Shown in pieces: positions 5,486-55,999 of a stretch of DNA of 64,000 bases; within the stretch, counting starts at the first letter, position 1, and every line of letters starts with the position of its first letter. This stretch comes from a virus. Under the pieces are notes generated by a model. That model made no database searches, was not told the origin of the DNA, and saw only the letters and a program-made list of their open reading frames with translations. The position numbers were made by a program, and so were the translations under genes. Location of the stretch: the IMG/VR virus record IMGVR_UViG_3300045988_171858; one strand, 5' to 3'.

Positions 5486-6237
5486 TAGAGCAACCGGATT
5501 TAAGAGACCCATATGAACTTGCACTAAAAGAACTTATTCAGCTTTCCAATAGAAAGGCAATCGAATCAAAGCCTTTGGAGCAAGTATTTGAAGAGCGTGC
5601 AGGATTAACGATTGACAATTTTATGGAATCGCTATATCCTCTATTCAAATCAGAAGGGCTTCTCATCGAAAATGAATCAGACTTTGGTCCATACGACCCG
5701 AACAAGTTTTACTTCACTGAAATTTTCCCTGACCAGCCAGATGACACGCCGGTTCAAAATGTTGTAACGTGGGAAATCTCACGAAGAGAACCGGCCCTCT
5801 TTGATTCAAAAGTAGTACAAGGTGGGACTAAGCAATATAGGCCAGTGCTACTTGGTCAAGTAAAGACCAATCAAAACCGACTAGCTGTTGTCTATGAAGC
5901 AATGTACGATAACTTAGTTAGTTTTACAGCCTGGTCTACAAGTGCTAGGGATGCAAGAAGGTTAGCTTCAACTCTGGAGAATTTGTTTCTAAAATTTAAT
6001 CCCCAATTTAAACGGGCGGTTAGATATATGGTCTACAAAGGCAGGTCGTCTACCATTAACACCGACCATTATAAGAACCGGAGACTATTTGGAGTTACAC
6101 TTTCCTATCTCATAGGAACAGCAGAACCTGGGTTCATCAAACAGGACGAGATTGTAGCAATTAAAACCTATAGTCAAGTCGTTGACTCCCTAAAAAATAG
6201 GGAAGTAGAAAAAATAACACAATTGATAGATAAATGA
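5482..6237 (+). CDS. hypothetical structural protein (just upstream of sheath)
   Basis: 251-aa ORF with an ATGA overlap with the upstream gene. Confidence 0.55.
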   Translation: MIEQPDLRDPYELALKELIQLSNRKAIESKPLEQVFEERAGLTIDNFMESLYPLFKSEGLLIENESDFGPYDPNKFYFTEIFPDQPDDTPVQNVVTWEISRREPALFDSKVVQGGTKQYRPVLLGQVKTNQNRLAVVYEAMYDNLVSFTAWSTSARDARRLASTLENLFLKFNPQFKRAVRYMVYKGRSSTINTDHYKNRRLFGVTLSYLIGTAEPGFIKQDEIVAIKTYSQVVDSLKNREVEKITQLIDK

Positions 6238-6249
6238 TAAGGTAAATAA

Positions 6250-8505
6250 ATGGCCACATATCAACACTTGCCAGGTGTAAACCTAGAGCTTCTGGATGGT
6301 AACCTTCGCATCGACCAAACCGATAGCTCTCCTCGCGTACTTATTATCGGTCGCGCAGAAAAAGGTCTGACCAACGCCCTGTATCCAGTAACTGACACTA
6401 ACCGTGCAGCCGCTGTCTTCGGTCAAGACTCTCCGCTAATCCGCAAGATGTCAGAAGCTCTTATCGGCGGCGCCCGTCGTGTTTCCCTATACCGTATTGG
6501 CGGTAAACAAGCCAAACTGAAAAACATCTTCGGTAAAGACAGCTATCTGGCTGCAGTAGAAGCATCAGTATCTGCCGTTGACAATCTTAAAGTCTACGTC
6601 GGTCCGCGCCCTAGCAATGATGGCAAGGCCTGCTTGATCGTTTTCAAAGGTAGCGAAATCGTCTACTCTAACGTTCCAGGTTCTGAAATCAACCGCAACC
6701 AAGTTGAAGTTTTCGGTTTTGACCCTGACACCAAGGTTAAAATCGGTACTCCTACCGAACCAGTTCCATTCTCCGAAGTAATTCTTAAAGAGTACACCCG
6801 TACTGCTAAGTTCGTCGGCAATGGTACTACAACCAAATTCTCTCTGCCCGGCGTTACTAAAACTGACAACGTAACAGTTAAAACTCTGACTGTTGACGGC
6901 GAAACTAAAAACTCCGGCTCAGACTTCTCTGTCAAAATCGACAAAACAAACTCTTCTCAATACGTTGAGTTCAACACTGCCCCTGAAGCAACTAAAGAAA
7001 TCCAAGTTCTTTATGCTTTCAAATCTAGCGGTAAAGTTGCCGGTTCTGCAGTATTCGTAGGTAACGGTTCTAAAACTGAATTTATCCTGCCTGGCACTAA
7101 GAAAGAGTATGAAGTTACTCTGGATGTTGTTAAAGTTGCTGGTCAAGACAAATCTGGCGAAGCTTCTGTTCAAGACGACAGCGCCGGTTCTGACACCAAA
7201 GTTCTGGAACTGACCGAAGCTCCTACCGATCAAAGCTCAGTTATCGTTGAGTACACCATCGATGCTAAACGCGAAGCCGTTACAGGTGAATACGAAGAAG
7301 GTGAAGATAACATCAACACCACCTGGAAAAACTACTATGAGTTGCTCCACACTGCTCTGGCAGAGTTGGAATCTGTTAATGCAATCTCTGTTGTTACCGA
7401 CTACGCTGTAATCGATGCTCCAAATATTGCCGATGGCTCTAACGACCTCGACCGTTTGGATTACGTTTACGTTTCAGAAGACAATGGCGAATTGAAATAC
7501 GAATGGTCAACCGAGAAAGTTCTGTACCGTAAAAACCGTGGCACTGCTACTACTGCCAATCCGGCTGAGGCAGACATTAACGGTAACGGCCAACCAATCG
7601 TTCATCGTCGCTACCACGAAGCAAACTTCGCTCACTTGCTGGCTAACTTTGCCAACACCATTTCTGAGAACGAGCAATTCTGTCTGGTAACTATCGGTGC
7701 GACAATGCCTCGTTCATTGTCTCAATACGAAGTTAACCGCTGGATTGGTTCTCCTGCCACTTACGATGCCTTGGGCAATATCGTTTCTAACGGTACAGGC
7801 CTGCTGGGCTTGCGCAATATGGTTGAGCGTGCTGACACCCGCCGCGGCTTCTATAAAACTATTTCTGGTTTCGTAGATGGCGCTATTGTAACCGACTCTA
7901 ATGGTGCACCAATCAACATTGGTAAATTCCTGTCTGTTGTTCCGCAAGTAATCGTAACTCCTTCATACTCTTCTGCCGGTTCTAACACTATCGTTACCAA
8001 CGGTGCAGCAGTTTATGCTGGTCTGATTACTACAATCGACGCCAGCGTATCTACCACTAATATGTTGATTCCTCGCATCTCGCTGCCAGGCGAAATCAAG
8101 AAACTGAAACTGGACCAATTGACTGGTGCTGGTTATGTCTTCTTCAAGACTACCAACAACAACGTCCGCGTGGTTTCTGGCGAGCTGGCTACAACTGCCG
8201 ATTCAGACTACCGTCTGCTTTCAACTACTATGGCCGTTGCCGAGGCTTCCAACGCCGTCCGTGACGTCGTTCAACCGTTCATCGGTCGAGGCCTGACAGA
8301 GGCTACTCTTGCTGCTGTTGACGTAGCAATCGAGGGCGCTCTGCAACGTCTGGTTGAGCAAGGACACATTGTGAAATATCTGCATGTAGTAAATCAACGT
8401 CCTATCGTTAACGGACGTGCAAGTCTGGACGTAGCTCTGACTATCGTTCCTGCATTTGAACTGCGTGAGATTAACGTAGCCGTTAAACTGGCTCTAGAAA
8501 TCTAA
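6250..8505 (+). CDS. contractile tail sheath protein
   Basis: N-terminus MATYQHLPGVNLELLD...VLIIGRAEKG...AAAVFG and C-terminal GYVFFKT...DYRLLST...PFIGRGL follow the usual sheath pattern. It is followed by tube-like genes and contains a tandem inserted domain. Confidence 0.75.
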   Translation: MATYQHLPGVNLELLDGNLRIDQTDSSPRVLIIGRAEKGLTNALYPVTDTNRAAAVFGQDSPLIRKMSEALIGGARRVSLYRIGGKQAKLKNIFGKDSYLAAVEASVSAVDNLKVYVGPRPSNDGKACLIVFKGSEIVYSNVPGSEINRNQVEVFGFDPDTKVKIGTPTEPVPFSEVILKEYTRTAKFVGNGTTTKFSLPGVTKTDNVTVKTLTVDGETKNSGSDFSVKIDKTNSSQYVEFNTAPEATKEIQVLYAFKSSGKVAGSAVFVGNGSKTEFILPGTKKEYEVTLDVVKVAGQDKSGEASVQDDSAGSDTKVLELTEAPTDQSSVIVEYTIDAKREAVTGEYEEGEDNINTTWKNYYELLHTALAELESVNAISVVTDYAVIDAPNIADGSNDLDRLDYVYVSEDNGELKYEWSTEKVLYRKNRGTATTANPAEADINGNGQPIVHRRYHEANFAHLLANFANTISENEQFCLVTIGATMPRSLSQYEVNRWIGSPATYDALGNIVSNGTGLLGLRNMVERADTRRGFYKTISGFVDGAIVTDSNGAPINIGKFLSVVPQVIVTPSYSSAGSNTIVTNGAAVYAGLITTIDASVSTTNMLIPRISLPGEIKKLKLDQLTGAGYVFFKTTNNNVRVVSGELATTADSDYRLLSTTMAVAEASNAVRDVVQPFIGRGLTEATLAAVDVAIEGALQRLVEQGHIVKYLHVVNQRPIVNGRASLDVALTIVPAFELREINVAVKLALEI

Positions 8506-8511
8506 GATAAA

Positions 8512-8531
8512 GGAGGGGCACTAGCCCCTCC
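8512..8531 (+). terminator. GC-rich stem-loop directly after sheath gene (attenuator/terminator or RNA-stabilising hairpin)
   Basis: GGAGGGGC-ACTA-GCCCCTCC, an 8-bp perfect stem followed by AATTTAAA. Confidence 0.4.
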
Positions 8532-8550
8532 AATTTAAACCAGGAATATT

Positions 8551-9255
8551 ATGTCAGATTTTGTTACATATAATGCCACCACCTCTGGTGTCGATATTAC
8601 ACCTGTACTAGCCGGTAAACCAATCGGCACTATGCAGATGATTTCATATCGTCTTGACCGTGAGAAACTTCCTATTCACACTATGGGGTCTCCAGATGCT
8701 CGTGCAATTGCTCGTGGTAAACGTACTTGTATGGGTTCTTGCGTATTCACAGTATTTGACCGTGAAGCTCTGTTTGACATCATGGATGAGATGGGTCGTT
8801 CAGACGTGTGGTTGGGTAAACATGAAACCGCTAACTATCGCCGCGGTGGTGCTTATAAACACCTGAACAATGGTCAATATCAAGACGCTATCCCAGAAGC
8901 TGCTCGTAACGCCATTTATGGTTCAACCGATCCTAAAGCTAACAACGGCATTCGCGGTGGCGGCACCTTGAATCCAGAATACGGTAAACTGGACTTGAAC
9001 ACCTCTCAAGGTATTCGTTCAGGCCTGCGTGACCTAACCAAGGCCCGCCTGGCAGACCAAATTCTCCCATTCGATATCGTATTGGCTTCCACTAACGAAT
9101 TTGGTAGCTCTACTAAAATGACCATCTACGGCGTAGAGTTCGTATCCGAATCCGGTGGTATTTCTATCGACGACTTGACCACTGAGAAACAATATTCATT
9201 TATTGCCCGCTCAGTATCTCCATGGGAACCGATGGATACCTTTAACTCTCGTTAA
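8551..9255 (+). CDS. tail tube protein (candidate major tube subunit)
   Basis: 234-aa ORF immediately after the sheath gene. It is a paralog of the N-terminal half of the next gene (ILPFDIVLASTNEFGSS...YSFIARS vs ILPFDIIILLSSEYGAF...LSFVARD). Confidence 0.6.
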   Translation: MSDFVTYNATTSGVDITPVLAGKPIGTMQMISYRLDREKLPIHTMGSPDARAIARGKRTCMGSCVFTVFDREALFDIMDEMGRSDVWLGKHETANYRRGGAYKHLNNGQYQDAIPEAARNAIYGSTDPKANNGIRGGGTLNPEYGKLDLNTSQGIRSGLRDLTKARLADQILPFDIVLASTNEFGSSTKMTIYGVEFVSESGGISIDDLTTEKQYSFIARSVSPWEPMDTFNSR

Positions 9256-9285
9256 TACTTAAATCTATTCTCCTACAGGTGTAAT

Positions 9286-10674
9286 ATGCAAGATTATAAA
9301 AATCAGCCATTACACAAGGAAGAATATCATTCTGTGGGTGGCGATGCCACCCACATTATTTTTAACTTCCCTGGATACGGCTATCTTTACATGGGCAGTC
9401 TTCTTTCACTGTCTTATCAAATATTCAGAGACAAAGTCCCAGTCTATAATTTGGGCAACACAAATATCGACGGCTTTGCTATTGGTAAACGATACGTAGC
9501 AGGGTCGATTGTCAAAACATCATTCCTACACGACGACCTGCGCCAATTCATGCAAGATATTGCAGACGGCATTGGTATTAAAGAACCGGTCGACTCTATC
9601 TATCAATTAAAACTCGAAAAGCAAAAGGCTTATCATCACCTAATGGCAGATGACATCCTTCCTTTCGATATCATTATTCTTCTAAGTTCAGAGTATGGCG
9701 CCTTCTCCGTATCAGAAGTTATATACGGCGCAACGTTAATCAATTCTGGGCAAGTCCACTCAATTCACGACATCATTACCGAAAATACACTTTCCTTTGT
9801 TGCTAGGGATGCCAGACAAACGCGCAATAAAATTGGCAGTGCTGTTTATGGTGAAGCCAAACATAACGGCGTAAAGGCTTCACAGCTATCAGGAGAGAAT
9901 GTAAACTATAATAACGGTGACTCATCATATTATTACGACAGATGGAATCAATCCGTTAATGATGCAGTCAAAAAAGGCACATGGTCACAAGACGAAATTA
10001 ATCGTATTAACGCTTATTCTCAGCTTGCAGGTAATGGCACACAGGCCAACGTCCCTCAAAGCTATCTGGATGCAGCCAGAGAGGAATATCGCAAACAAGG
10101 CGCAACAGATGCTCCGGACAGTGCATCGGGTTCTAAGCCATCGGGTTACGATGGTGCATACCTAGATAAAAATAGTTTCAAGTCCAGTAAAAATGGGTTT
10201 GAAGTAGAGGACGGCGATACCGTCAAAGTTAATGCAAGGAAAAGTGACGGCACAGAATACCGCTCTAAAAATGAGGATGGCAGAACTTCTCTTCGTTTTA
10301 TGGGTATTGACACACCAGAGACTGACCACCAAAAGAATAAGGGTCAACCATACGGACAAGAGGCCGCAGATTTCCTTAAAAAATATGTCCAAGATGGCAA
10401 GTGGGACAAAGATATTGAAGACGGCGTAACCAAGGTTGTTGGAACAGATACTTATGGGCGTAAGTTATTCTACAATCCTAGGTATATAGAATCAGCAGTA
10501 GAGTCAGGAATGGCATGGTTTAGACCTGAAAGTGCCAGACAGGCTGGTATGTCCACCGAAGATATTAACCGTATCAAGCAGAAATACCACAAAGCAAAGG
10601 CCGGCAAAGTCGGACTATGGGGCGGAGACAAGATCGTTGATCCTGCAATACACAGAAAGACATGGGATAAATAA
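9286..10674 (+). CDS. tail-tube-like domain fused to staphylococcal nuclease (SNase/thermonuclease) domain
   Basis: The N-terminal ~190 aa are paralogous to the tube protein. The C-terminal part reads DGDTVKV...LRFMGIDTPE...QPYGQEAADFLKKYV...TDTYGRKLFYN, which is the SNase catalytic pattern. Confidence 0.7.
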   Translation: MQDYKNQPLHKEEYHSVGGDATHIIFNFPGYGYLYMGSLLSLSYQIFRDKVPVYNLGNTNIDGFAIGKRYVAGSIVKTSFLHDDLRQFMQDIADGIGIKEPVDSIYQLKLEKQKAYHHLMADDILPFDIIILLSSEYGAFSVSEVIYGATLINSGQVHSIHDIITENTLSFVARDARQTRNKIGSAVYGEAKHNGVKASQLSGENVNYNNGDSSYYYDRWNQSVNDAVKKGTWSQDEINRINAYSQLAGNGTQANVPQSYLDAAREEYRKQGATDAPDSASGSKPSGYDGAYLDKNSFKSSKNGFEVEDGDTVKVNARKSDGTEYRSKNEDGRTSLRFMGIDTPETDHQKNKGQPYGQEAADFLKKYVQDGKWDKDIEDGVTKVVGTDTYGRKLFYNPRYIESAVESGMAWFRPESARQAGMSTEDINRIKQKYHKAKAGKVGLWGGDKIVDPAIHRKTWDK

Positions 10675-11612
10675 TGGCTAAGTCAAAATATAATATCTCA
10701 AACACCAGCGATGGCGTTCAAGTATCTGTTGATGGGAACCGAGCCGAAGAACATTCTCGGGAATATAATATTGGTCTTGAATATGCTCTCGCTAAAAATC
10801 TCGCTCCTGGTAAAACTGTATCAGTTGATAAAACTATAATCGAGAAGATGTACCCAAAGGTACAGGATACAAGAAAAGGTCCTACCACATTTAAGCCAAA
10901 GGGCGTTCCGAAGGCTACTGGTAAAACCGATCCAATAGACAATATGTCAGCCATCTCTGCAAAGGGAAGAGGCAAACAGGTTAATCTTAACCCCGGAGAA
11001 ACGGACAGGGAAAGAGCCTTGGCGCATAGTAAAGTTCAGACTGCATCATACGATGGGTTGTACACCAAATACTATTCGTCTAGTGATTTTAATCTGTATA
11101 TTGGAGATATTTTAATTGACCGGGCGGCCGGTGTTGCTGTTGGAGAATCACTAACAAGCATACCTATTTACACTATTGGCAATAGTAGATACGACTTCCT
11201 AGCCAGAGGCAATGTAATCGTCAACGGTATTATTAGAATCAATAAAGCGGAGAAAGATTACCTTGCAAGGGTAATTGCACACTACCGCGGCCGGACAAAC
11301 GAATTTAAGATTCTTAGCTCATATGAACAGCTCCAGCTTACATCCGAAGAGCTTGCAAAATACCGCAAGCAGTTAAAGGAATACCAAAACGAACAGGTAT
11401 CGGCCAAATCTGTATTAGACTGGGCAGACCTAGGAAGCTTTACTATTCATATGGTCTATAATAACTCTGACGCTGTTACAGAGGGTGTTCAACAACGCAT
11501 ATCTATTGTAGAATGTAGAATAGTTGGATATGAACATTCAGTAGATATCGGCTCAGACGGCCAATTAATTGATGGATACAAATTCATCGCTAAAGAGGTA
11601 ATTCCAGAATGA
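10674..11612 (+). CDS. distant tail-tube-family paralog (tube initiator/terminator candidate)
   Basis: IPIYTIGNSRYDFLARGNVIVNGIIRIN resembles LPIHTMGSPDARAIARGKRTCMGSCVF and VPVYNLGNTNIDGFAIGKRYVAGSIVK in the two preceding genes. Confidence 0.4.
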   Translation: MAKSKYNISNTSDGVQVSVDGNRAEEHSREYNIGLEYALAKNLAPGKTVSVDKTIIEKMYPKVQDTRKGPTTFKPKGVPKATGKTDPIDNMSAISAKGRGKQVNLNPGETDRERALAHSKVQTASYDGLYTKYYSSSDFNLYIGDILIDRAAGVAVGESLTSIPIYTIGNSRYDFLARGNVIVNGIIRINKAEKDYLARVIAHYRGRTNEFKILSSYEQLQLTSEELAKYRKQLKEYQNEQVSAKSVLDWADLGSFTIHMVYNNSDAVTEGVQQRISIVECRIVGYEHSVDIGSDGQLIDGYKFIAKEVIPE

Positions 11613-12094
11613 GAGTTGAAAGAATTGAAGGGTTGGAGTCGCTACATCCAGACGAACTCTCCCCTGATGAACACGAGCAGTTAGCTCAGGCTAAAGAAAA
11701 TGCCGAGGAAGAGCGAAAGGAACAGACGGATATCGACATCCTCCTTGATGCTCTTTCCGACAAAGAAGATGCCCCAAAGATTTATGACATTGAAGCATGG
11801 CTTGAAAAATATGGTACAATTCATGTATCGTCAGTTTTGGGCGGCAAGGATATTTTTATCTGGCGTGTATTAAGACGACAAGAATATTCCAATATGATTA
11901 AACAGGGAATGATGGACAATGAAATTCGCGCAGAAGACTCAGTAGTTCGCCGTTGCCTATTGTACCCAGAAGCCAAACAAGAGTTTCTAACAACCGCTCC
12001 TGCAGGTTTTATTTCAACATTGAAAGAACAAATCATGTATCGCTCAGGATTTGTTCCACTGCAGCAAGCCTATTCGCAAATTAAGATCCTGTAA
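11609..12094 (+). CDS. acidic tail-assembly-chaperone-like protein
   Basis: Sits between the tube genes and the giant tape-measure-like gene. Acidic N-terminus. Shares an AGF(I/V)ST(L/V) segment with the next ORF. Confidence 0.4.
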   Translation: MRVERIEGLESLHPDELSPDEHEQLAQAKENAEEERKEQTDIDILLDALSDKEDAPKIYDIEAWLEKYGTIHVSSVLGGKDIFIWRVLRRQEYSNMIKQGMMDNEIRAEDSVVRRCLLYPEAKQEFLTTAPAGFISTLKEQIMYRSGFVPLQQAYSQIKIL

Positions 12095-12624
12095 TGAGTG
12101 CATTAGATTTGAAGACGGGGACAGTTGTTATCCCCTTTAATAACACCCCTATTCAAATCGAGGGGCAAATGTTTAAAAACCTATCTGTTCTAGCTAGACT
12201 AATGTCTATGACCGAATTAGATAGGGCCATGAGAATCAACATTGAAGATGCTGCAACAGAAGATGAGCTGTATGAAGAAATCTTCAAGTCCTGCGTTATT
12301 GATGTCCCAGGTATTCCAAAGGGCGTTGATTACAATAATTCCTCAGCCGGATTTGTATCAACAGTTGGCAAAATAATCTTTATAAAATCAAAGGAATACG
12401 TAGAAGACCCGTTCAAAGCATACGATAGAGCAGTGGAATCTGTCCCTATGGTAGAGGCAATGGCGGCAGTAATATCAAGGTTTCTTGGCATCAAATACAC
12501 AGAAGCAAAAAGTCTCCCCATTAACGACCTCTTCGAGATGTATGCGGCTTGCCATGTTGCATTTCCCAATGAGGTTGCCCCAATTGTCAAACAAGAGGAA
12601 GAAAGGGTTGGTCCTCCAGCATGA
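12094..12624 (+). CDS. tail-assembly-chaperone-like protein, paralog of preceding gene
   Basis: TAATG overlap with the upstream gene. SSAGFVSTVGKIIFI aligns with TAPAGFISTLKEQIM. Confidence 0.35.
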   Translation: MSALDLKTGTVVIPFNNTPIQIEGQMFKNLSVLARLMSMTELDRAMRINIEDAATEDELYEEIFKSCVIDVPGIPKGVDYNNSSAGFVSTVGKIIFIKSKEYVEDPFKAYDRAVESVPMVEAMAAVISRFLGIKYTEAKSLPINDLFEMYAACHVAFPNEVAPIVKQEEERVGPPA

Positions 12625-15600
12625 TAACATCTAATATTGGGTGGTCGGCCCTTAACGATTACAGAGACCGCAGAGAGGAAAGAATTGCTCACCGCAGAGT
12701 CTTGATGGATGCTCAAACAGTTGAGGAAAATAAATCCGAGCAAGAGGCCAGGGACATTGTAGGCTCTGTCGTAAAATACGGATTAACTCTGGAAGGCCTC
12801 GTATTGGCTAACAGAGCACTTAAAAATAAAGAAGTACAACGGAAGGTTGAGCGTTATGTAAACCTAAGCTACCTATCTGATTCTATCAGAGGTACGAAAC
12901 AGGACGCTCTAAATGTCTTCGGTGGCGGGAAAGTTACCTTAGCAAACTTGTCTATGAACGTGGCAAGGGCGTTCGAGGAACTTTCCCCTTTTTCTATTTT
13001 AAGAACCTTTAATACTTCCCATATTATCACTCCATTCTCTACCGTAGAATCTGAATTTGAATTCTCCTCCGATTTGCTAAAGGGGCAGAAAAGATACTTA
13101 AAATTCTTAGCATCAAAATACGGAGAGCGAGAATTAACAGACGCCGACTTTGATGTTGGGCTCAAATATTCGAAGGGTAAACTACTAGACGCATCGGACA
13201 ATGTAGTAATCGAAAATGCAAGACTTACTTTAACAGAGTTTGCAGGCACGGAACCGGGGCACTCAGCAACATCTAACTATAATAAAGTCCTGCGTAGACA
13301 TATAGCCGTTGGGGAAGGAGCATCGTTCCTATCCAGAAGAGAGATTGGCGACCTAGCGAGGAACGTCCCTACGCATACTCCATTTACAATTATTGCAGCA
13401 GATAAAAATGCAAATATTGGAAAAGAGTGGATGAAGTCTGTTGTTGGGCAGGCAATAGCTCAGGGTTTTAACATGGTCAATGAACCACTTGGGTTCATAG
13501 AAGAAACCGGCGGCACCTTGATTAATAGGAACTCAACACTCTTTAAACTGATTCGCAAATATGGCAGAATTAATCCAAATGCAACATCCGAATCAACAAT
13601 TAAGGAATTAGCAACCGGATATGCCAGACATGGCACAATGAAACTCGCAGGATTGGCAGCCGGGTTCTATGCATTGGACAATGCCTCCAGATTGATAGGT
13701 ACAGACGACTCAGGATTCGGTCATGGCATCCTCGAAGGACTATCAACAACATTCCTCGGCGCGAAACTCCTATATGCAGAGACTGTATCAGACAGGTTTG
13801 AAGAATACAGACAAGAGCAAGAGTATGTAGCACCAGGTTCAACTTCTCTGTTAAAACTAGCAGGCTTCCCTCTGGCTGGAGCAATGTTTGGTGGTACAAT
13901 CGCTTACGGCAGACGTGCAATCCCAACAGCGTTGGCAAATAATGGGTATATCAGCTCAACAATAGAGGCTGCAAGAGAAAGCTTTATATTCGGTCGCGGC
14001 GTAGCGACACTCGCAGCTAATACGCCAATACAAGATGCAGTAGCAGTAGGCACAAGGGCTAAACGATTTGCAACAAGAGGCGCGGCAATCGGTGCATTAT
14101 TTGCACTACCATTTCTCCCTGGTGCATTGATAGGCGAAAGTAGTGATGAAGTAAGGGCCGAATATCTGGAAGGCAAAGATGTAGCTATCCGTAAAAACAG
14201 AGGATGGTTCTCATCGTCAACACCAATAGAAGGTGAGGGTGTAAAATATTTCACCAAGAATTGGTATCAAAGATTGATGGCTGATAATAAAGACAAGATT
14301 CTTTATGGGGATAAAGACACAGAAGAAGATCTGAATCCATTCCTAAGTCCATTCGACTATCTAAGAAATCCATACCGCTTCGAACAAATGCACGAAGGAG
14401 ATATGCCATATCCTGTATGGGGCATGGACGTATCTATGGGCGGCTGGATTGGTCGCGGGTTTCAAATGGCCTTTGGCGACGCTATCAAGCCTGACCTGAT
14501 CAATCCAAGGATGGAAGCTCTCACACAAGAGATGCAGGACTCTGGTGAGCCTGACATTATTCCAACACTATCAATAACCCAAAATGTTTCAAATAAACGA
14601 CTATCGCTTATTGGTGATGGCAAAGCAACATATGGCGAGTTGGCTAAGTATGACCCTAATACAGAGTCAGCAAACTATATTGTATCTTCTGGTCTAGACT
14701 TCGTAGGTCTTAAAGGCTGGGCAGTATCAGGTGTGCTAAAAGACTTCGGTATAGGTATGCCGGACTTAAAAACACAATATGCACGCTCGGGAGAAGCCAC
14801 AAATATCGCCAGAGAGTTTGAAGCACAGAACCTCGGTGGTATGTTAGGTTCGGCGGACGTTATACGACGTATCATTCCAATGTCAGCAGACGTCACAGGA
14901 GAGCGTTTCAATCCGTTAAAAAATACTGCTGCTCCAGACTGGCTACCAAAAGGAGATTACTTCAACGACTTCTCAAGGGGCGCATTCTGGGATAAGGTAG
15001 AAAACGGATACGACAGGCTTCCTGGTAAGGGATACGAAACATGGAATCCAGAGCTATCTGACATTGACCCCAACGACTATCCAGACATCGACAAATTCAA
15101 AATCCTATCAGACGTAGCATTCGGCAGTAACGAATACTATAAAATGTATGAGAAGATGGAGGATTTGTATCGCAGGAAAGTCGCCGGAGAAGAAACCGAG
15201 CTTTCAGACGAAGACGCTGCAAGATTCGAAGAGATTTATATTCAATCCCAGGAACGCTCCAGGAAGAAGCGCTTCTTCGAATACAAGACAGACGAAGAGC
15301 TTGAAGGTATTTCAATGTGGGGCAGAATGCTGGGCTCCATATGGGAAAGTACAACCCATAATGCAGAGCTTTCAACAGAACGTCTGACATTCTTCCGGCC
15401 GGCGGGCAAGCTATTGCACCAAAGAACAGCAATAGAAGATTACGTCAAAACTCAACTATCCGAAGGCGACACTGCACTCTGGAACAAGCCATACGAACAC
15501 TTCATTAGGCCATTCGTAGAAGACTCATACAAGTACATAGACTCAGAGCATGTACCGGAATATATCCAAGAGCGAAGAAACGTAGACAACTACTTCGATG

Positions 15601-21407: not shown

Positions 21408-24400
21408 ATGGCAAGATTTACTTTTTCTATCAACGGAATGCTAGATTTAGAACCAATCTCATTCGACAAGGTTGATAAGTTTTATACAACCCAGCACGAA
21501 TTCCTACGAGATACTTCGGTTCTAACTTCTAAATCCAGATATAGCGAGATGCTTCATCTTGCCACATTCGCATTTGATGCCTCGGATGCTAAAGACATTG
21601 AAAGGCTTCAAACGCTAATTGCTATCTGCAACTCATTTCCATATGTATTCATTCGTTCAGATGCGATTGTTGAAAATCATTTGATGCCCTTGAATCTAGC
21701 AATAGGTTCTGGGTATTACATGTATGCACTGCATGAGTTTCAGGCAGAAATGTCTTCAACTGATGCAGACCAGGGTGTAGTTACAGTTTCCCTAAGACTG
21801 CAAATGGTAAACTGGAAACCTCTCGCCAAGAGTATTAAATTCATCTCAATCGAAGAGGGCTCAGAAGTTAAGACTAAATCTGGCAAAGTCAGAAATATTT
21901 CCGAATATAATGGCGAAGATGGAGACCAGGTTGTTTCTACCGGCAGCTATGTGAAATACGTTGATAACCCAGAAGAGTCCAATCTTCTTAACTACATGGT
22001 TGAGAAAAATACGAGTGAAGATATTGAGGCTCTTCTTAACTCAGGTCTAAGTCGCTCGTTTGAATTTAATCTTGGATGGCCTCTTGTTATGACGGACATC
22101 CAATTTGAGGGTAGGCCAAAATCAGATTTCTGCTGGAATCTTGTTCGACAGTTCAGAACATTAAAGACGGTAGACCTAGAAGGCTCTTTGCAGACAAAAG
22201 AAGGCAAGAAAACGTCTCAAGCAAATATCTCAGAAGTAACAGACGACAATGCCGAACGTTACGATGAGACTGGTAGAATTTGGGTCGGATATGTAAGAGA
22301 AAGGCTTGCAGGCACCAATGTCAAAGACGGCGGCGTGGCATTACAATCAATTACCGTCAGACGCAGAAATAGATTTGCCAATCAAACAGTTCAAGGTTTC
22401 GTATACCCATATGCACAATATCTTGGACGTTCTCCTTCTGAAGTTCTAATTACAACTGCCGTTAATCATACTAAAGGCATGGCATCTACAACCGCCATGC
22501 AAGCAATCAAAAAAGCCGACGAGATGACAAACTATGTAAGGGTGTCAACGCCGGCATTAAAAGGGCTAGATGTACTTGCAATCGAAAATCCCCTAGTAAA
22601 TGGTCTAGGCATTAAATATGCAATCCTAGACTCATCTCATGCAACCACATCTGGTTCACTAAATAATCTCCTAATCAACAACTTCACCTTTATTGAATCT
22701 GATTCTTACGGCGCAATAGAATCCAGTAGATACGTACTAGCATCTTCTGTTAACGGATGGAATGACTCTGCCAATAAAGCACAAAGACTAATTGATGTGA
22801 TCGGACAGTATCGCGCCCTTAAAAAAGACGGCTCAAGTACATCCGAATACAACAATATGATTTCCATGATAAACAGTCGCTTGGCTGACGCATTGGATAA
22901 ATCGGCTAAGGCAGAGCTATCAGAAGCTAAATCACTTCAAGAGTCCGATGTCTACAAAAAGGCAGACGACACTCAGAAATCTGTATATATCACTCAATTA
23001 TATTTACAGCTCGTATCAGCCAATACTGCCTCAGGTTCGGAAGAGCGTATAACACTGGAGCGTATAAGACTTCTAGATTCAGAAATGGAATCGTTGTATT
23101 TCGAGGTTATCACTAACCTTAATCCAATTACAATTAAGGGTTTAAAAGAAGACCTTAAAAAAGAAAAGGATTGGATTGACAAACTTGAAGGCAATTATAC
23201 GTCGTTCAATGGAGAGGGCATTCCGGATTTAAGAATTAAAGAAATCTTTGAGAACCTAACTCCAACAAAAGAGTACAAAAGCTGGAAAGACCTGTCGTCA
23301 TTCCCATTTATCTATGACCAAGGCATTCTATCTCCGGATAAAGTAGTAGCATACTGGGATGAAAAACTTCCAGAAATCAACAAGTTGCTGGAAGCAACAG
23401 GCGCGTTAATCAAAACAGACCTAAATATTTACACAACTGCTCCAGCTATGAATGATGCCGGAGGTAACTCAACTACCGGTGCATCGGTTATGGTTCAAAA
23501 CCCGGACGGCGGAACTTCTCCAAAACGTAAAGCAAACGTAGAATTGGTCTACACCAGAGACCAGTATGAACGTGACTACAAGGTAAGCACAGGTTCAAAT
23601 AAACGTTTACTCCCATTGGAAAGCATCGTAGCTTATACAAGGCTTGGTAGGGACTTGCAGAACTTTGGTGGACGGCATATGGGGTTAGATATGCCAGTAC
23701 CAGTAGGATCGCCTGTACGTGTTGCCGATGATGGTGTTGTAGCCGTAGCTAAGTTCCAGATGAATAAAAATGGTAAGCGCGGATACGGTAACGTAATCTA
23801 TGTTAAGCATGCAAACGGAATCGAAACTAGATATGCCCACTTAAGCCGCATTCTCGTAAGAGAGGGTTCTCGTGTTGGTAGAGGTCAGGTAATTGGACTA
23901 TCAGGTAACACTGGTGGTTCTACAGGCCCGCACCTTCACTATGAAATCAGAATTAATGACAAGGTGATTAGTCCCAAGGCTTACTACGGCAAATCTACAA
24001 ACGGCCCATCCTCTATTGCGACATCATCAAAAACAAACTCTTCTTATTCCGCAGCAGCATACGCAAGAGGCGGCTCAAGAGCAAGGTCAAGCATTATGAC
24101 CTTAAAAGAGTTTATCTCTGCTGGTGAAAGTGGAGGCAGTTATGATATTGCCAACTGGTATATAGGCAAAAGGTTAAGCTCAGGTAATAGAGGCATCTCT
24201 AATAAGACAGTGGCCCAAGTAATGGCTATGCAGAGCGCAGGGCAGCTTTACGCGGTTGGGAAATACCAAACCATACCTGTAACTCTTAGAGCTGCTGTAC
24301 AAGGCCTACGGCTGCCTGGAAGCACACCTATGTCTCCATCCGTTCAAGAAAAGATCGGAACATGGTTAATCTTCAATAAACGTCCTGCACTAGGTGCTTA

Positions 24401-27293
24401 TATTAGAGGCGAAAGTAATGACCTTGATAAGGCACACAGAGAGTTTGCATTAGAATGGCGCTCTATTCCAATGCCCAATGGCCGTTCAGCAAGTGCAAGC
24501 GGCGATAAAGTTCACGCCGGTTACACTCCAGAAAGAGTAAGACAGGCACTACTTGCAGCAAGAGCAGCGTATGTTAAATCGCTGTCTAGCGGCAAGAATA
24601 AGGAGCAGGCACAGGAAGAGGCTGTTGCGTCAACCGCGCTTGCAAGGGTTTCTGCCGGTGAAGATGTGTCAAAGGTTGCTGAAGGTTACATTAACGAACT
24701 TTATGCTGGCCGTGAAAAAGACCCAATCGAAGCAATTGTAGACCCAGTTCCATGGACAGAGGAAATTCAAGCTAAGTCTAGGCTTGAAAACTTTGTCAAA
24801 GACCTGAATCGAGGAATCCAAAAATTGATTCCGACATACAAGGTTTATATGGTTCACGGTAATGACGAAAACAGTTTGATTAACCTAATCAACTATCGTC
24901 AACATGCATCATACTACGAAGTTCCTGCAGTTAGAAACATTCGCGTAGAAATGGCAAATCAGGATAACCCTGTTGCTGTCGCTACATTTGAAGTTCTTAA
25001 TGCTTTAAATACAGCTTCTGATCCTAAAGAAATCAGAGCCTTAAAGCCTGAGAATGTGGATATACGCTCCTTAAACTCTGACGCGGCCCGTATTATTTCA
25101 ATGGACCAAATCAGACTCAAAGCTGGCAATAAAATCCAGATTAGAATGGGATACGGGAACGATCCTAATAAGCTGTCTGTTGTATTTAATGGAATCGTAA
25201 CAGAGTCTGACGGCGGAGAAGTTCTGACAATTGTAGCAGAAGGCTTCGGTAGAGAGCTTCAAAACGAGCAATTGTTTATCGGCGATGTAGTGCCAACATT
25301 CTCTTTCCTTTCCGATATTGACAACCTCTATGTATCAGCAGCGGTGGCTAAAGTTCTTAAGTCGGCTAATCTAGATAGCTTTGGTAGAAACCCAAGATGG
25401 TTTGCAGACAATGCAGACTTTAGAGATGTAAGAGGTATGAGCAACGAAACTGCCGCTTCAACCCTCGTTGGTGATAGCGGCATAGGGTTCAGTAATTCTC
25501 TATGGAATTCACAGCTAGACGAATACTTCTTCTATTCTGCAAAAGGCGCAACGGAGAGCCTGGAAAACTTCTGGCTTATGAATGTTGATATGGCAGACCG
25601 ATTCTTTGTTACAAGCCTAAAAGACCTGTTCCCATTCTCGCTGAATGATTTCTTCTCAAACTTCAATGTTGTTAATAAGACTGTTTGGGATGTATTAACA
25701 ACCGGCCGCCGCATGTTCCCATCATCTGTCCTATTGGTTAAAAACATCGAAGGACGCTCTACAACATTCGCAGGGATTAAAGAGCAGATGATGATAGGTA
25801 AAGAAAAGCCAACATCATTAGCAGCAGAACTGCTATCCAAGATTCAGAAGAAAGCAGACTTCAAGAAAGAGGCAGACTCAGCCCTAGCTGGAGACACCAC
25901 AGGTATCGGCCAATTCGTAGCAGAAAACGAACTAAAAGAGAAGACAAAGATCATTGGAGAGCAAACATTAAAAAACAATGGCTCCGATATTATTGACTTA
26001 CTGGATGCGGCAAACGCAGACAAATACGTCGACATCTCCTCTTATGTTCCTGCTACAAACTTCCATATGATTAACAGTTCTTACAATCTAATTTCAAATC
26101 AACTAAGACTAGACCAGAACTGTATCACTGGCGCTAAAGTAGAATACAATAGCGACCCAGAGGATTTTGGATACGGAGAGAATATCTTTGATATGAAAGC
26201 AAACGGCGGCCTTAAAGGTTCGCTTGCCAAGTTCGGATATATCAACGATAACTCCATTAGCTCTGTTGGTATGGCTATCAAAACTGCTCAAGGTTATTTA
26301 CTAGAAGAACTGGAAAAGATGTATGATGGTGCGGTTATCATTACCGGTAATCCGGACGTTCAGCCTGGCGACTATGCATTCATTCAAGATGACCTGAGAA
26401 ATATGTCGGGTGTGATTAAATGCCGCGAAGTTCAGCATGTATTTACAGACTTCGACGGGTATGTAACAATCATTACCCCAGGTATGTTTGTAGAGCCGTC
26501 AACTCATATGTATTCAAATTTGTATATGAAACTTGGCATCTTTATGAACTTTGTTTCAACAGCAGCATCTGAGTACGCTCAGGTGTCAAGCGCAGAAACA
26601 ATTCCAGGTCTAATCTATGAGCAAACAGCATTCCAACCAACTGACCTTGGTGCTTCCGTATACCTTCTTGGCGTAGGAAACGTTGCAGTAGGTGGACTAT
26701 CAGCAGCTTTGACGTATGGTGCGGCAAGTCGTATACTTGGTGGCCCTGCCATAAGTAGGGGCCTATCATTGGCAGCACGGGCAGGTAAGGCCGTTGCAGG
26801 TGCAGGTTGGGTTCGCTCATTAGCACACACGGCAATGTCATTTGGTTCTTCTGTTGGTTCAAAAGCACTACAAGTTCTACCAAGAGCAGCTAAGGTTATA
26901 TCGGCAGTCCGGAGCGTAATTGCAGGCGGAAGATCATTAGCATTAGCAGCAGCTGGTGCTGCGGCAGGAGGATTCATTGCCACGGCAGCAGTATCGGCCC
27001 TTGTAGTGGTTCTTGTATATGGTGCACTGGCCATGGTACAAAACCTAATTGAATCATATGCACTTAAACTCGAAATGAGACACCGTGCATTGATGAAATT
27101 CCCAGTCAAGGTTTATGGCCAAGAATACACAGCAGGCTTAACAGGATGGAATGATACAGAGACTCCATTAGAATTACAAATAGAGACAGTAAAAGAAAGC
27201 ATTAGGGCTTTAGGCGACATCAGCGAGGCTTCAACTCGGGCCGGTTACGATGGTTCTAAATATGCCTTATATTTTAAACTAGCTACGGATTAA
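21408..27293 (+). CDS. giant baseplate-hub / cell-wall-degrading protein (M23 peptidase + lysozyme-like + gpD/gp27-like + C-terminal hydrophobic region)
   Basis: M23 motifs HMGLD...YGNVIYVKH...GNTGGSTGPHLHYE at 23667-23951. GESGGSYD...AVGKYQ lytic-transglycosylase-like segment at 24096-24480. IQIRMGYGNDPNKLSVVFNGIV hub-like segment at 25110-25250. Ala/Gly-rich hydrophobic stretch at about 26630-27045. Confidence 0.65.
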   Translation: MARFTFSINGMLDLEPISFDKVDKFYTTQHEFLRDTSVLTSKSRYSEMLHLATFAFDASDAKDIERLQTLIAICNSFPYVFIRSDAIVENHLMPLNLAIGSGYYMYALHEFQAEMSSTDADQGVVTVSLRLQMVNWKPLAKSIKFISIEEGSEVKTKSGKVRNISEYNGEDGDQVVSTGSYVKYVDNPEESNLLNYMVEKNTSEDIEALLNSGLSRSFEFNLGWPLVMTDIQFEGRPKSDFCWNLVRQFRTLKTVDLEGSLQTKEGKKTSQANISEVTDDNAERYDETGRIWVGYVRERLAGTNVKDGGVALQSITVRRRNRFANQTVQGFVYPYAQYLGRSPSEVLITTAVNHTKGMASTTAMQAIKKADEMTNYVRVSTPALKGLDVLAIENPLVNGLGIKYAILDSSHATTSGSLNNLLINNFTFIESDSYGAIESSRYVLASSVNGWNDSANKAQRLIDVIGQYRALKKDGSSTSEYNNMISMINSRLADALDKSAKAELSEAKSLQESDVYKKADDTQKSVYITQLYLQLVSANTASGSEERITLERIRLLDSEMESLYFEVITNLNPITIKGLKEDLKKEKDWIDKLEGNYTSFNGEGIPDLRIKEIFENLTPTKEYKSWKDLSSFPFIYDQGILSPDKVVAYWDEKLPEINKLLEATGALIKTDLNIYTTAPAMNDAGGNSTTGASVMVQNPDGGTSPKRKANVELVYTRDQYERDYKVSTGSNKRLLPLESIVAYTRLGRDLQNFGGRHMGLDMPVPVGSPVRVADDGVVAVAKFQMNKNGKRGYGNVIYVKHANGIETRYAHLSRILVREGSRVGRGQVIGLSGNTGGSTGPHLHYEIRINDKVISPKAYYGKSTNGPSSIATSSKTNSSYSAAAYARGGSRARSSIMTLKEFISAGESGGSYDIANWYIGKRLSSGNRGISNKTVAQVMAMQSAGQLYAVGKYQTIPVTLRAAVQGLRLPGSTPMSPSVQEKIGTWLIFNKRPALGAYIRGESNDLDKAHREFALEWRSIPMPNGRSASASGDKVHAGYTPERVRQALLAARAAYVKSLSSGKNKEQAQEEAVASTALARVSAGEDVSKVAEGYINELYAGREKDPIEAIVDPVPWTEEIQAKSRLENFVKDLNRGIQKLIPTYKVYMVHGNDENSLINLINYRQHASYYEVPAVRNIRVEMANQDNPVAVATFEVLNALNTASDPKEIRALKPENVDIRSLNSDAARIISMDQIRLKAGNKIQIRMGYGNDPNKLSVVFNGIVTESDGGEVLTIVAEGFGRELQNEQLFIGDVVPTFSFLSDIDNLYVSAAVAKVLKSANLDSFGRNPRWFADNADFRDVRGMSNETAASTLVGDSGIGFSNSLWNSQLDEYFFYSAKGATESLENFWLMNVDMADRFFVTSLKDLFPFSLNDFFSNFNVVNKTVWDVLTTGRRMFPSSVLLVKNIEGRSTTFAGIKEQMMIGKEKPTSLAAELLSKIQKKADFKKEADSALAGDTTGIGQFVAENELKEKTKIIGEQTLKNNGSDIIDLLDAANADKYVDISSYVPATNFHMINSSYNLISNQLRLDQNCITGAKVEYNSDPEDFGYGENIFDMKANGGLKGSLAKFGYINDNSISSVGMAIKTAQGYLLEELEKMYDGAVIITGNPDVQPGDYAFIQDDLRNMSGVIKCREVQHVFTDFDGYVTIITPGMFVEPSTHMYSNLYMKLGIFMNFVSTAASEYAQVSSAETIPGLIYEQTAFQPTDLGASVYLLGVGNVAVGGLSAALTYGAASRILGGPAISRGLSLAARAGKAVAGAGWVRSLAHTAMSFGSSVGSKALQVLPRAAKVISAVRSVIAGGRSLALAAAGAAAGGFIATAAVSALVVVLVYGALAMVQNLIESYALKLEMRHRALMKFPVKVYGQEYTAGLTGWNDTETPLELQIETVKESIRALGDISEASTRAGYDGSKYALYFKLATD

Positions 27294-31908: not shown

Positions 31909-33340
31909 CGTAAGAGTCGGGGCTAGAGCTGGAGTATCTCCCGAATACCGGAGCCCACCTCTTAGACTGTCAGAAATAGACCCTAATAGAAACCATCTAT
32001 TAGATACATACACATCTCCAGGTTCAGTCTCTAAATTCGGATGGGAATCAGAGTTGATGTCATTCGATTCGTTCGGTAAGCTAACAGCGGGATCTATGTC
32101 GTTCCTAAAGGATGATAGTTCTGTCTCAGCGGTGTCAGGCTATGGATTTATCCCATCTAGCCAAAAGATAAAGCTCAAGACTTATGTATCGGTATCTGCA
32201 TCAGTTTATAAACGAGGCAAAGATTCTGATTCTGTATATATCAAATATAGTGGTAATAAGGATGACAAATATCACGTCCTGACAACAAGAGTTGGCGAGC
32301 TGGACCATATCGAAGATGATTCACATAACCACGGTATTAATCTTGACGAGGTTGGCGAACTCACAATCGAAGTTTCACACATTGCTATCCCAGAGGAAAA
32401 GACTAAGGTTTCATCAGATAAAATCATTAAGCTAGATTACTATCCTGTTACGAACGTCAGAGTAGAAGGCGCGGCAGAATACGATGTAAATCCATATTCC
32501 GGCATTGTCATAAATAAATCCGGGAAAAGTCTTACAATCAAATATAATCCTGCTCCATTAGTAGTTATTCATAGCGGTCCCGCCACATATCTTGAGGCAA
32601 TCAACCCATCAATAACCCTAAACCTTCTAGAGATAAACAATCAAAGTGTTGATAAGATTATCTCTAACGACAATATGATTGACGCTAAAACCAGCTTCTT
32701 CATAGAGTCCACGGGTCCTGTCGATATAGATAACGCTACATACTCCTCAGGTAGAAAACATATCCTGCCTCCTGGCGTATACTCATTGACCCAGACAAGT
32801 TCAGAATGGGAGACAGAGGTCAACTCTAAGATTGCAGCCTCGGACTTATCGGTAGTTGCAGATATTAAATCCAGACTCCTTAAGAAGTACAAGTCGGATA
32901 ATGCAAACCCAATCTCATATGAGAGCGCAGCTAATGGTGATGTGTATAAGTTAAAAGAAGATGGTAGATCTGGAACCTATTCATTAGAAACGGTTGTGGA
33001 TAATGAGGATAGAAGGATTATTCTTCCGCATCTTACAAATCCTGCCTCCATCTCTGTGCAAAGAGTTGGTCACCGCAACTCTAGGGTAGAAGTAACTGAC
33101 TATGACAAGGACGCCGCCGGCACACTAAAATTTGACACCAAAGGTAGATATATTATTAGATACACCCCCATCAAAGAGAACGAATGGGAAGCTTCAAATT
33201 CTAGCATTTTAAGCTCAATTGTAGCTGCACTAAGAGCACCTCAAACGCAAGTCAAAGTGTATTACGGGACAGAAGAAAACGGCTCCGTAGAGTATTTAAA
33301 TATAGACAACCCTATTATTATAGGTAGCAACAATGGATAA
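31889..33340 (+). CDS. hypothetical tail/fibre structural protein
   Basis: The ORF is open from 31856, but the in-frame ATG at 31889 is preceded by GGGAGAG, so that start is preferred. Confidence 0.5.
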   Translation: MPTLTYDVRVGARAGVSPEYRSPPLRLSEIDPNRNHLLDTYTSPGSVSKFGWESELMSFDSFGKLTAGSMSFLKDDSSVSAVSGYGFIPSSQKIKLKTYVSVSASVYKRGKDSDSVYIKYSGNKDDKYHVLTTRVGELDHIEDDSHNHGINLDEVGELTIEVSHIAIPEEKTKVSSDKIIKLDYYPVTNVRVEGAAEYDVNPYSGIVINKSGKSLTIKYNPAPLVVIHSGPATYLEAINPSITLNLLEINNQSVDKIISNDNMIDAKTSFFIESTGPVDIDNATYSSGRKHILPPGVYSLTQTSSEWETEVNSKIAASDLSVVADIKSRLLKKYKSDNANPISYESAANGDVYKLKEDGRSGTYSLETVVDNEDRRIILPHLTNPASISVQRVGHRNSRVEVTDYDKDAAGTLKFDTKGRYIIRYTPIKENEWEASNSSILSSIVAALRAPQTQVKVYYGTEENGSVEYLNIDNPIIIGSNNG

Positions 33341-55636: not shown

Positions 55637-55999
55637 TTAACCGATAAGAGCTTGGAACATTTGAATAAGCTCAGAAGCTTTACGCTTAGATTTACGAGCG
55701 TCAAGGTGTTCCTGATGGGCTTGAAGTACACTCGCTTTAGATCGGCGAACTTCTTTTTTATTTTCTGCTTCATCAAGAATTCCAGCCAATGTAATAGCAC
55801 CGATAAGCTTCAGAAACTCTTCAAACTCTTTTTGCTCATCGTCTTCACATTCAAAGGTTTCGGTTGGAATAACTTCTACAGGCTCGTCATCTTGGACTGA
55901 ACGCAAATAACCCAGTCCGTCAATAGCTTTACTTCTTTCAGCAGCTCGATGTGCTGCTAGGATTTTGGCGATATCGCCAGGGGAAACGTTACGAATCAT
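55637..55999 (-). CDS. hypothetical protein
   Basis: 120-aa ORF with a TAATG overlap with the nrdA stop. Confidence 0.45.
   Translation of the reverse strand: MIRNVSPGDIAKILAAHRAAERSKAIDGLGYLRSVQDDEPVEVIPTETFECEDDEQKEFEEFLKLIGAITLAGILDEAENKKEVRRSKASVLQAHQEHLDARKSKRKASELIQMFQALIG

Follow-up and report, generated by a model that had tools for sequence, protein, structure and literature searches.

A tail-tube paralog with a C-terminal staphylococcal nuclease domain in the tail module of an uncultured myovirus

Introduction

Tube-fold proteins of contractile and non-contractile tails occur both as ring-forming paralogs near the baseplate and as carriers of additional C-terminal domains. T4 gp54/gp48 and Afp5/Afp7 form single hexameric rings between the hub and the tube, and Afp7 carries a LysM domain. 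In phage phiKZ, a ring of the tube paralog gp88 lies between the hub and the tube, as in T4, and such rings act as baseplate tube-initiators (PMC13250141). According to a review of solved tail tubes, the C-terminal domains of the siphophage tube proteins lambda gpV, T5 pb6, SPP1 gp17.1* and YSD1_22 protrude outward, are thought to contact the cell surface, and would clash with a sheath (PMC8718954). Tube-fold proteins fused to C-terminal nucleases, including an HNH DNase, are established in type VI secretion systems (T6SS) as Hcp-ET1-5, in the passage of PMC8262886 that cites Ma et al. 2017. In addition, the baseplate-hub homolog of BtI1, a prophage-like element of Bacillus thuringiensis israelensis, has a staphylococcal nuclease (SNase) domain at the place where gp147 of phage 0305phi8-36 has peptidoglycan hydrolases, and its utility was 'obscure' to the authors (PMC2147016). 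Here we describe a gene, designated T2, in a 64,000-nucleotide (nt) stretch of the IMG/VR virus record IMGVR_UViG_3300045988_171858 (the whole stretch is referred to as the window), the predicted product of which joins a tail-tube paralog to a SNase domain.

The gene is the second of three tube-like genes, T1, T2 and T3, and this triad mirrors gp19/gp54/gp48 of T4 and Afp1/Afp5/Afp7. However, T4 gp54/gp48, phiKZ gp88 and Afp5/Afp7 have no nuclease, and no sequence-level relationship between them and the window proteins was detected. Immunoglobulin (Ig)-like modules are common to the siphophage tubes and to relatives of the T2 N-terminal domain (N-domain). In the siphophages, the tail is non-contractile and its major tube protein carries an Ig-like binding fold, whereas T2 appears to be a minor paralog in a sheathed tail and carries an enzyme domain. 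The Hcp-ET proteins share with T2 the order of a tube fold and a C-terminal nuclease, but they belong to a secretion system without a capsid or genome, their nucleases are HNH and other types rather than SNase, and they are interbacterial toxins with immunity proteins. Furthermore, T2 gave no Pfam Hcp match and has no T6SS context, its neighbours being phage sheath, tube, chaperone and capsid-lineage genes. The BtI1 hub, which was compared by its published description only, likewise has a SNase domain on a structural protein of the tail tip and belongs to the same ancient lineage as T2; there, however, the carrier is a gp27/gpD-like hub and the fusion is N-terminal. A literature search for a virion-borne SNase or a tube-SNase fusion turned up only the remark on this hub, in agreement with the first-pass annotation of this DNA, which was made from the sequence alone and knew of no characterised fusion of this kind. 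Nor did we find any account of a contractile tail with a built-in nuclease. In T2, a tail-tube paralog slot that was already known carries a module of a new kind.

Results and Discussion

Architecture and distribution of T2

The open reading frame (ORF) of 462 amino acids (aa) and its division into a tube-like N-domain, a linker and a SNase domain, all of which were proposed in the first-pass annotation, were confirmed (Table 1). The linker, hereafter called the tether, had been described as rich in Ser, Gly and Asn; this description holds, and Ala is abundant as well. An alignment of 20 homologs of the fusion (A1), which share 32-87% identity with the window protein, was used to compare the three parts. 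The mean pairwise identity was 69% in the N-domain, 40% in the SNase domain and 20% in the tether. The length of the tether was steady at 96-133 aa despite its poorly conserved sequence, and most of it had a predicted local distance difference test (pLDDT) score below 55 in AlphaFold2 (AF2) models.

At least 18 contigs, 50-200 kb in length and including one of 183.6 kb, encode an identical T2 protein, and the fusion is therefore not an assembly artefact. The search of related phages for the same domain architecture, which had been suggested as a check, showed that it recurs in approximately 69 protein clusters, down to 31% identity; the clusters related to the fusion have up to 953 member sequences. 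In all lineages inspected, the fusion is a single continuous ORF. An origin of the extension by programmed frameshifting or from a split gene, as in SPP1 gp17.1*, was considered on account of a 213-aa protein and was rejected, as this protein proved to be a mis-clustered T3 homolog. The protein in question (P0296, found on 410 contigs) shares a 90%-identity cluster with the 456-aa T2-SNase protein P0060, apparently owing to a clustering artefact.

A megablast search with positions 6000-13000 of the window gave no match among GenBank phages. A tblastn search of the same collection with the fusion gave only remote matches to the N-domain, in two Bacillus jumbo phages, and no close cultured relative. 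A scan of 185,579 species genomes of bacteria or archaea yielded no T2 relative that might represent a prophage copy or give a clue to the host. In public records, T2 homologs are labelled only 'nuclease-like protein' or 'staphylococcal nuclease homologue'.

The SNase domain

The Pfam family PF00565 matched aa 336-445 of T2 over model positions 2-105 of 107, with a score of 51.2 bits (E=2e-13; gathering cutoff, 21). In a search of the PDB, the T2 family profile aligned to residues 14-144 of Staphylococcus aureus nuclease A (E ~3e-14). The AF2 model of aa ~295-460 had a pLDDT of ~75-95, and its top 50 Foldseek matches in the PDB were all S. aureus nuclease, with a probability of 1.00 and a template modelling (TM) score of ~0.62 by target length. 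The alignment with nuclease A extends over the full domain, with the same fold and with all Ca2+-binding and catalytic residues shared. On the other hand, the identity is only ~25%, an insertion of ~10-20 residues (aa ~318-333) follows the DGDT strand, and the equivalent of Lys84 (K84) is not conserved, being Thr in the window protein. Nuclease A is secreted via a signal peptide, whereas the SNase domain of T2 is fused to a tube-like structural domain.

The codons of the SNase motifs (Table 1) were confirmed directly in the nucleotide sequence. The residues equivalent to the Ca2+ ligands are D311 (D21 of nuclease A), D342 (D40) and T343 (T41), and those equivalent to the catalytic residues are R337 (R35), E345 (E43) and R392 (R87). 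D309, D311, T312, R337, D342, P344, E345 and R392 were each present in all 20 homologs of A1, and G310, Q354, Y390 and G391 were also invariant. The sole exception was T343, which is T or A; T41 of nuclease A binds Ca2+ through its main chain. The Pfam, PDB-profile, AF2/Foldseek and codon data bear out the earlier claim of a SNase domain with all catalytic positions present, and the conservation of these residues in orthologs, which had been named beforehand as a test, extends down to homologs of 32% identity. As judged from the sequence, the C-terminal domain of T2 is a complete SNase with its Ca2+ site and catalytic site intact. SNase activity needs millimolar Ca2+, while free Ca2+ in the cytoplasm is sub-micromolar.

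Among viral structures, the SNase part was matched best by BFVD entry A0A6J5NQ80, a 1342-aa protein of an uncultured Caudovirales phage annotated as 'SNase-like, OB-fold'. This match suggests that further large proteins of phages, possibly of the virion, may contain SNase domains.

Relationship of T2 to the tail-tube protein T1

In a BLASTP comparison, T2 and the product of T1, the gene immediately upstream, matched in two collinear segments (E=2e-10 and 2e-8). When the profile of A1 was compared by hhalign with that of an alignment of 21 T1 homologs (A2), residues 11-177 were matched over 161 columns with a probability of 99.4% (E=7e-22). These two comparisons support the paralogy between residues 1-190 of T2 and the upstream tube protein that had been noticed at first pass.

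The AF2 model of T1 had a pLDDT of 58 (70-79 in the core). Almost all of its Foldseek matches were tube or Hcp structures: the tail tube and neck of phage 812, tube and baseplate chains of the Photorhabdus virulence cassette (PVC) and the antifeeding prophage (AFP), HFTV1, the diffocin tube and many Hcp structures. The best match was the phage 812 tube (E 5e-4, probability 1.0, TM score ~0.5 by target). At the sequence level, T1 matched no solved tube protein and no Pfam tube family. PDB sequence-profile searches with the T1 family (A2) and with a broad tube-domain family (A6) returned no tube protein, and a Pfam scan of the A2 members gave a single marginal match to Phage_TTP_1 (E=0.026). The fold assignment of T1 therefore rests on the Foldseek result.

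Orthologs of T1 were found by tblastn in GenBank in the Bacillus phages 0305phi8-36 (ORF140), vB_BceM_WH1 (gp101), Edson and KLEB27-3, in Moorella phage MTATph1, and in Acinetobacter phage ME3 (ME3_30). The KLEB27-3 ortholog is annotated as 'tail tube protein'. The GenBank note on ORF140 of 0305phi8-36 reads 'major structural protein' and 'tail tube', and records it as a virion protein by mass spectrometry. A reading of T1 as a 'major head protein', suggested by PHROG family phrog_9206, was rejected on the basis of this note. The RefSeq records NC_009760 and NC_041884 (0305phi8-36 and ME3) have 'major head protein' where the GenBank originals have 'major structural protein', and the GenBank record of MTATph1 likewise gives the label 'major head protein' to a gene of the tail-tube family. 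Since the GenBank originals read 'major structural protein' or 'tail tube', the 'head' label is apparently a mistake of annotation that has propagated, probably by relabelling.

The tail module and its lineage

The order of genes in the window (sheath, T1, T2, T3, two chaperones and giant tail proteins) is that of the 0305phi8-36 lineage, and a matching order was found in four cultured and five diverged metagenomic relatives. The stop codon of T2 overlaps the start codon of T3 (TAATG). Comparison by hhalign of the T3 family (A7) with the tube-domain family (A6) gave a probability of 98.1% over 166 columns (E=6.5e-14); this match was significant only with the T3 family profile, unlike with the single T3 sequence. 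The lineage has three tandem genes that are assigned to the tube fold by these comparisons.

In a bit-score matrix, the three genes downstream of the sheath gene in five phages fell into three orthologous groups (Table 1). The fusion scored 75-99 bits against T2 proteins and 43-54 bits against T1 proteins, with the exception of WH1 gp101 at 82 bits. Its match to gp141 of 0305phi8-36 had E=3e-21. In the GenBank record, gp141 (ORF141, 502 aa) is described as a 'virion structural protein' found by mass spectrometry and as a 'tail tube paralog'. The fusion is in the same orthologous group and syntenic slot as gp141, WH1 gp100, ME3_31 and MTATph1 CDS22. The closest cultured tail module is that of ME3, a phage of a Gram-negative host. 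On the basis of the three orthologous groups and the shared gene order, the locus is assigned to the tail module of an uncultured myovirus of ~183 kb in the 0305phi8-36/ME3 lineage, with the fusion as its T2 gene.

Variable insertions are found in T3 proteins; in gp142, PG_binding_1 was matched weakly.

Table 1. Positions of T2, its parts and motifs, and the neighbouring tail genes in the window, with the three orthologous groups
Feature	Position	Strand	Details
T2, tube-paralog-SNase fusion	9286..10674	+	ATG start; 462 aa plus stop
T2 N-terminal tube-like domain	9286..9852	+	aa 1-189
T2 tether	9853..10197	+	aa 190-304; 115 aa; Ser/Asn/Ala/Gly-rich
T2 SNase (thermonuclease) domain	10198..10671	+	aa 305-462; 158 residues
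Motif DGDT	10210-10221		D309-G-D311-T312; nuclease A D19-G-D21-T22
Motif LRF, Arg	10294-10296		R337; nuclease A R35
Motif DTPE	10309-10320		D342-T343-P344-E345; nuclease A D40-T41-P42-E43
Motif YGR	10459-10461 (R392)		Y390-G-R392; nuclease A Y85-G-R87
Motif QPYGQEA			Q354 onward
Terminator-like hairpin in T2	9333..9366	+	GTGGGTGGC-GAT-GCCACCCAC at 9333-9355, then U-rich ATTATTTTTAA; terminator scan
Tail sheath protein	6250..8505	+	751 aa; phrog_16991 'tail sheath', E=8e-63; 0305phi8-36 gp139, BLASTP E=7e-15
T1, predicted major tail-tube protein	8551..9255	+	234 aa; Foldseek of AF2 model, synteny, ortholog annotation
T3, predicted third tube-like paralog	10674..11612	+	312 aa; profile-profile match and orthologs
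Tail assembly chaperone homolog	11609..12094	+	161 aa; BLASTP ME3_33 'putative tail chaperonin', 5e-27; WH1 gp098; 0305phi8-36 gp143
Small tail-module protein, second chaperone position	12094..12624	+	176 aa; BLASTP ME3_34, E=3e-17; synteny with 0305phi8-36 and WH1 'tail chaperonins'
Orthologous group T1			window 234-aa protein, gp140, WH1 gp101, ME3_30, MTATph1 CDS20
Orthologous group T2			fusion, gp141, WH1 gp100, ME3_31, MTATph1 CDS22
Orthologous group T3			window 10674..11612, gp142, WH1 gp099, ME3_32, MTATph1 CDS23

C-terminal extensions in relatives of T2

The T2 proteins of the cultured relatives range from 174 to 502 aa, and the C-terminal extension is therefore optional and variable. 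The 0305phi8-36 protein gp141 also has an extension of ~300 aa, which, unlike that of the window protein, has no Pfam match and is not a SNase; in the orthologs from WH1, ME3 and MTATph1, such an extension is short or absent. The T2 N-domain profile (A3) was searched against 1.84 billion representative proteins and matched 2084 of them at E<=1e-3, including 1124 at E<=1e-10. The best 146 newly returned of the 2084 matches were examined (150 proteins when four already known are included). Of these 146, 97 were at least 280 aa long, and most of the 97 consisted of the N-terminal domain and a long C-terminal extension. The Pfam domains detected in the 97 proteins were PG_binding_1 (35 proteins), Cadherin-like (4), CarboxypepD_reg (3) and SH3_3 (3), with single cases of SLH, PG_binding_3, Phage_lysozyme, Big_1, SpaA, CHB_HEX_C, Fn3_assoc and Cu_amine_oxidN1. 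In two PG_binding_1 carriers (L002 and L007), the T2-like gene has downstream of it shorter proteins with PG_binding_1, then small ORFs and a giant protein, an order like that after T2 in the window; both contigs end directly upstream of the T2-like gene, before any sheath or T1 gene. Since the modules of the relatives are cell-wall-binding, lytic or Ig-like, they are expected to face the outside.

Proposed function of T2

The sequence comparisons make it very probable that T2 is a tail structural paralog with a competent SNase. Beyond this structural part, we propose that T2 would be a minor virion protein present as one or a few hexameric rings at an end of the tube. Its likeliest place would be a baseplate-proximal adaptor ring between T3 or the hub and the T1 tube, comparable to T4 gp54/gp48, phiKZ gp88 and Afp5/Afp7; for this specific position, the chance is a little below even. 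The tethered SNase would emerge outside the ring and not in the lumen, as do other C-terminal additions to tubes, and about six nucleases would be displayed on tethers close to the tip of the virion's tail. Owing to the need of SNase for millimolar Ca2+, the nucleases would be silent in the low-Ca2+ cytoplasm of the producing cell and active in Ca2+-containing surroundings. The substrate may be extracellular DNA (eDNA) of biofilms or mucus, DNA of lysed cells, or DNA or RNA bound to the cell surface, and by cutting such extracellular or envelope nucleic acid the phage would reach or traverse the cell surface more easily. The peptidoglycan-binding or lytic modules at the same site in sister lineages would serve the same stage of infection. 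To this whole package, a minor terminal tube ring with outward, tethered and Ca2+-gated nucleases acting outside the cytoplasm, we assign a probability of roughly 0.5. A more far-reaching version is doubtful, namely that a ring of about six active Ca2+-gated tethered nucleases at the tail tip serves as an eDNA cutter or destroyer of competitor DNA and that the T2 C-terminus is a general plug-in site.

Several points weigh against this proposal. The virion membership and tail position of T2 are taken from the ortholog record, gene order and analogy, and the outward direction of its C-terminus is taken from siphophage tube structures. The tube fold of the N-domain is predicted via homology to T1, the model of which is itself moderate (pLDDT 58), and the N-domain was modelled poorly by AF2 (pLDDT below 50 for the full fusion with the 20-sequence alignment). 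The set of 97 extended relatives may include members that are not strict T2 orthologs. Furthermore, we know of no phage with a virion-associated DNase, and hence of no functional precedent.

The first-pass annotation placed the nuclease in the tail lumen or at its end, from where it would be delivered with the genome and degrade host DNA or RNA, in the manner of the Hcp-ET toxins. The established fusions of tube folds with nuclease toxins in T6SS (Hcp-ET1-5, as cited in PMC8262886) make this conceivable, a long and poorly structured tether could in principle thread along the channel, and the catalytic site is intact. However, the known C-terminal additions to phage tubes sit outside the tube, and the peptidoglycan-binding, SH3, SLH, lysozyme and Ig-like modules of the relatives, which point outward, would be senseless in the cytoplasm. 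From known tube dimensions, six folded 18-kDa domains should not fit into the lumen of one ring beside the tape-measure protein and the DNA end. A nonspecific nuclease beside the phage genome would be self-destructive, the textbook Ca2+ concentration of the cytoplasm would leave it inactive there, and no immunity or inhibitor gene is evident adjoining T2. The placement in the lumen is unsupported by these data, and we give it a small probability. The evidence agrees better with the second suggestion of the same annotation, according to which the nuclease acts on nucleic acid outside the cell or on its surface. A related possibility is that the virion nuclease works in the periplasm or wall zone after penetration, for example against competitor phage or other foreign DNA, as a form of superinfection exclusion. 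It draws on the same structural evidence as the proposal of extracellular action, a reach of the extension into the wall layer is suggested by the cell-wall modules of the relatives, Ca2+ in the envelope is expected to be sufficient for activity, and the closest cultured tail module comes from the Gram-negative-host phage ME3. It is nevertheless entirely speculative, with no documented mechanism of such a kind; approximately six molecules per virion would amount to little enzyme, the phage would need to shield its own DNA, and folded domains outside the first ring would have to pass the baseplate opening. We consider its chance to be slim.

Two further explanations dispense with an active virion nuclease. 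The SNase domain might be a binding or structural module, either an adhesin with an oligonucleotide/oligosaccharide-binding (OB) fold for nucleic acid or an anionic surface polymer, or a baseplate spacer. Most modules of the relatives (PG_binding_1, SH3, SLH and Ig-like) bind rather than catalyse, and the replacement of K84 by Thr also favours this reading. The Ca2+-binding and catalytic residues, on the other hand, are kept (T343 as T or A) although the identity of the SNase domain is ~40%, and this is therefore the pattern predicted by selection for catalysis and not for binding alone; a purely binding role is improbable. Alternatively, T2 might not be a stable part of the virion but an intracellular or lysis-released nuclease for nucleotide salvage or for reducing the viscosity of the lysate, with the tube domain as a leftover or an oligomeriser. 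The ribonucleotide reductase subunits encoded in the window point to investment in nucleotide supply, and the labels in public records refer only to the nuclease. Against this, the N-domain is the most conserved part of the protein (69%, versus 40% for the SNase domain), T2 is flanked by T1 and T3 in a tail operon of strict synteny, with its stop codon overlapping the T3 start, the 0305phi8-36 ortholog is recorded in GenBank as found in virions, and low cytoplasmic Ca2+ argues against activity within the cell. Such a role outside the virion is very improbable.

Known virion-associated enzymes mostly attack polysaccharide or peptidoglycan. If the proposed function of T2 is true, a tail nuclease adds nucleic acid to the barriers that phages degrade on their way in, and T2 would be, to our knowledge, the first virion-associated DNase/RNase 'depolymerase'. 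It would also mean that, in a large and mostly uncultured jumbo-phage lineage, the second tube paralog offers at its C-terminus a general site into which envelope-directed modules (peptidoglycan-binding, lysozyme, SLH and SNase) can be plugged; as far as we found, such a modular extension site on T2 has not previously been described. Biofilms and mucus have extracellular DNA as a major scaffold, and the phage or its SNase domain could therefore be of practical interest.

A hairpin within the 5' end of T2

The terminator-like hairpin listed in Table 1 begins 48 nt into T2, approximately 80 nt past the T1 stop codon. Its folding energy is -19 kcal/mol (z=-3.8), and it is unique in the window. 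The stem is kept in five relatives with 31-52% protein identity. Only two kinds of change were seen in the stem: with GCT for GCC, a G.U pair remains on the sense strand, and with TCC for GCC, the innermost pair is opened. Where a residue is invariant and its codon fourfold degenerate, a single codon was used in all six sequences at each of the five sites within residues 17-29, compared with none of the 15 elsewhere in the N-domain (Fisher test, p ~6e-5). Since synonymous codons are fixed there only, selection acts on the nucleic acid at this site. The hairpin is probably an attenuator that holds the expression of T2 and T3 well below that of T1, and this would fit a minor-ring role of T2, which would be made in smaller amounts than T1. 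Alternatively, it may be a 3' hairpin that stabilises the transcript. As a regulatory RNA element constraining synonymous sites within a structural gene, it would be a clean example.

Another GC-rich hairpin, GGAGGGGC-ACTA-GCCCCTCC, lies at 8512-8531 in the 45-nt gap between the sheath gene and T1; it was scored as a terminator only on the minus strand.

Other features of the window and of related contigs

Pfam scans of the other large ORFs of the window gave no host-specific binding domains. A 1961-aa tail-module protein (21408-27293, plus strand) has a Peptidase_M23 domain at aa 756-856 (E=3e-29) and PHROG matches to tape-measure and endolysin families; it is probably a virion-associated peptidoglycan hydrolase. 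A 1350-aa protein (33333-37385, plus strand) has a Bactofilin-type beta-helix at aa 736-814 (E=1e-8) and may be a component of a fibre or spike.

Mobile elements are present in the tail modules of related contigs. In three of these, the giant protein downstream of the chaperones has matches to Intein_splicing or LAGLIDADG families (L010, 9213-13506; L012, 6384-7398; L002, 4945-9982). A faint LAGLIDADG_1 match was found in a fourth contig (L008, 5746-6387); the ORF concerned is flanked by two short ORFs immediately upstream of the T2-like gene, an arrangement that could represent an interrupted T1. In the window itself, the large and small subunits of ribonucleotide reductase are encoded on the minus strand at 55999-57444 and 58909-60933, respectively. 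The small-subunit ORF is 674 aa long, about twice the usual length, and its Pfam match is split in two, which suggests an insertion such as an intein.

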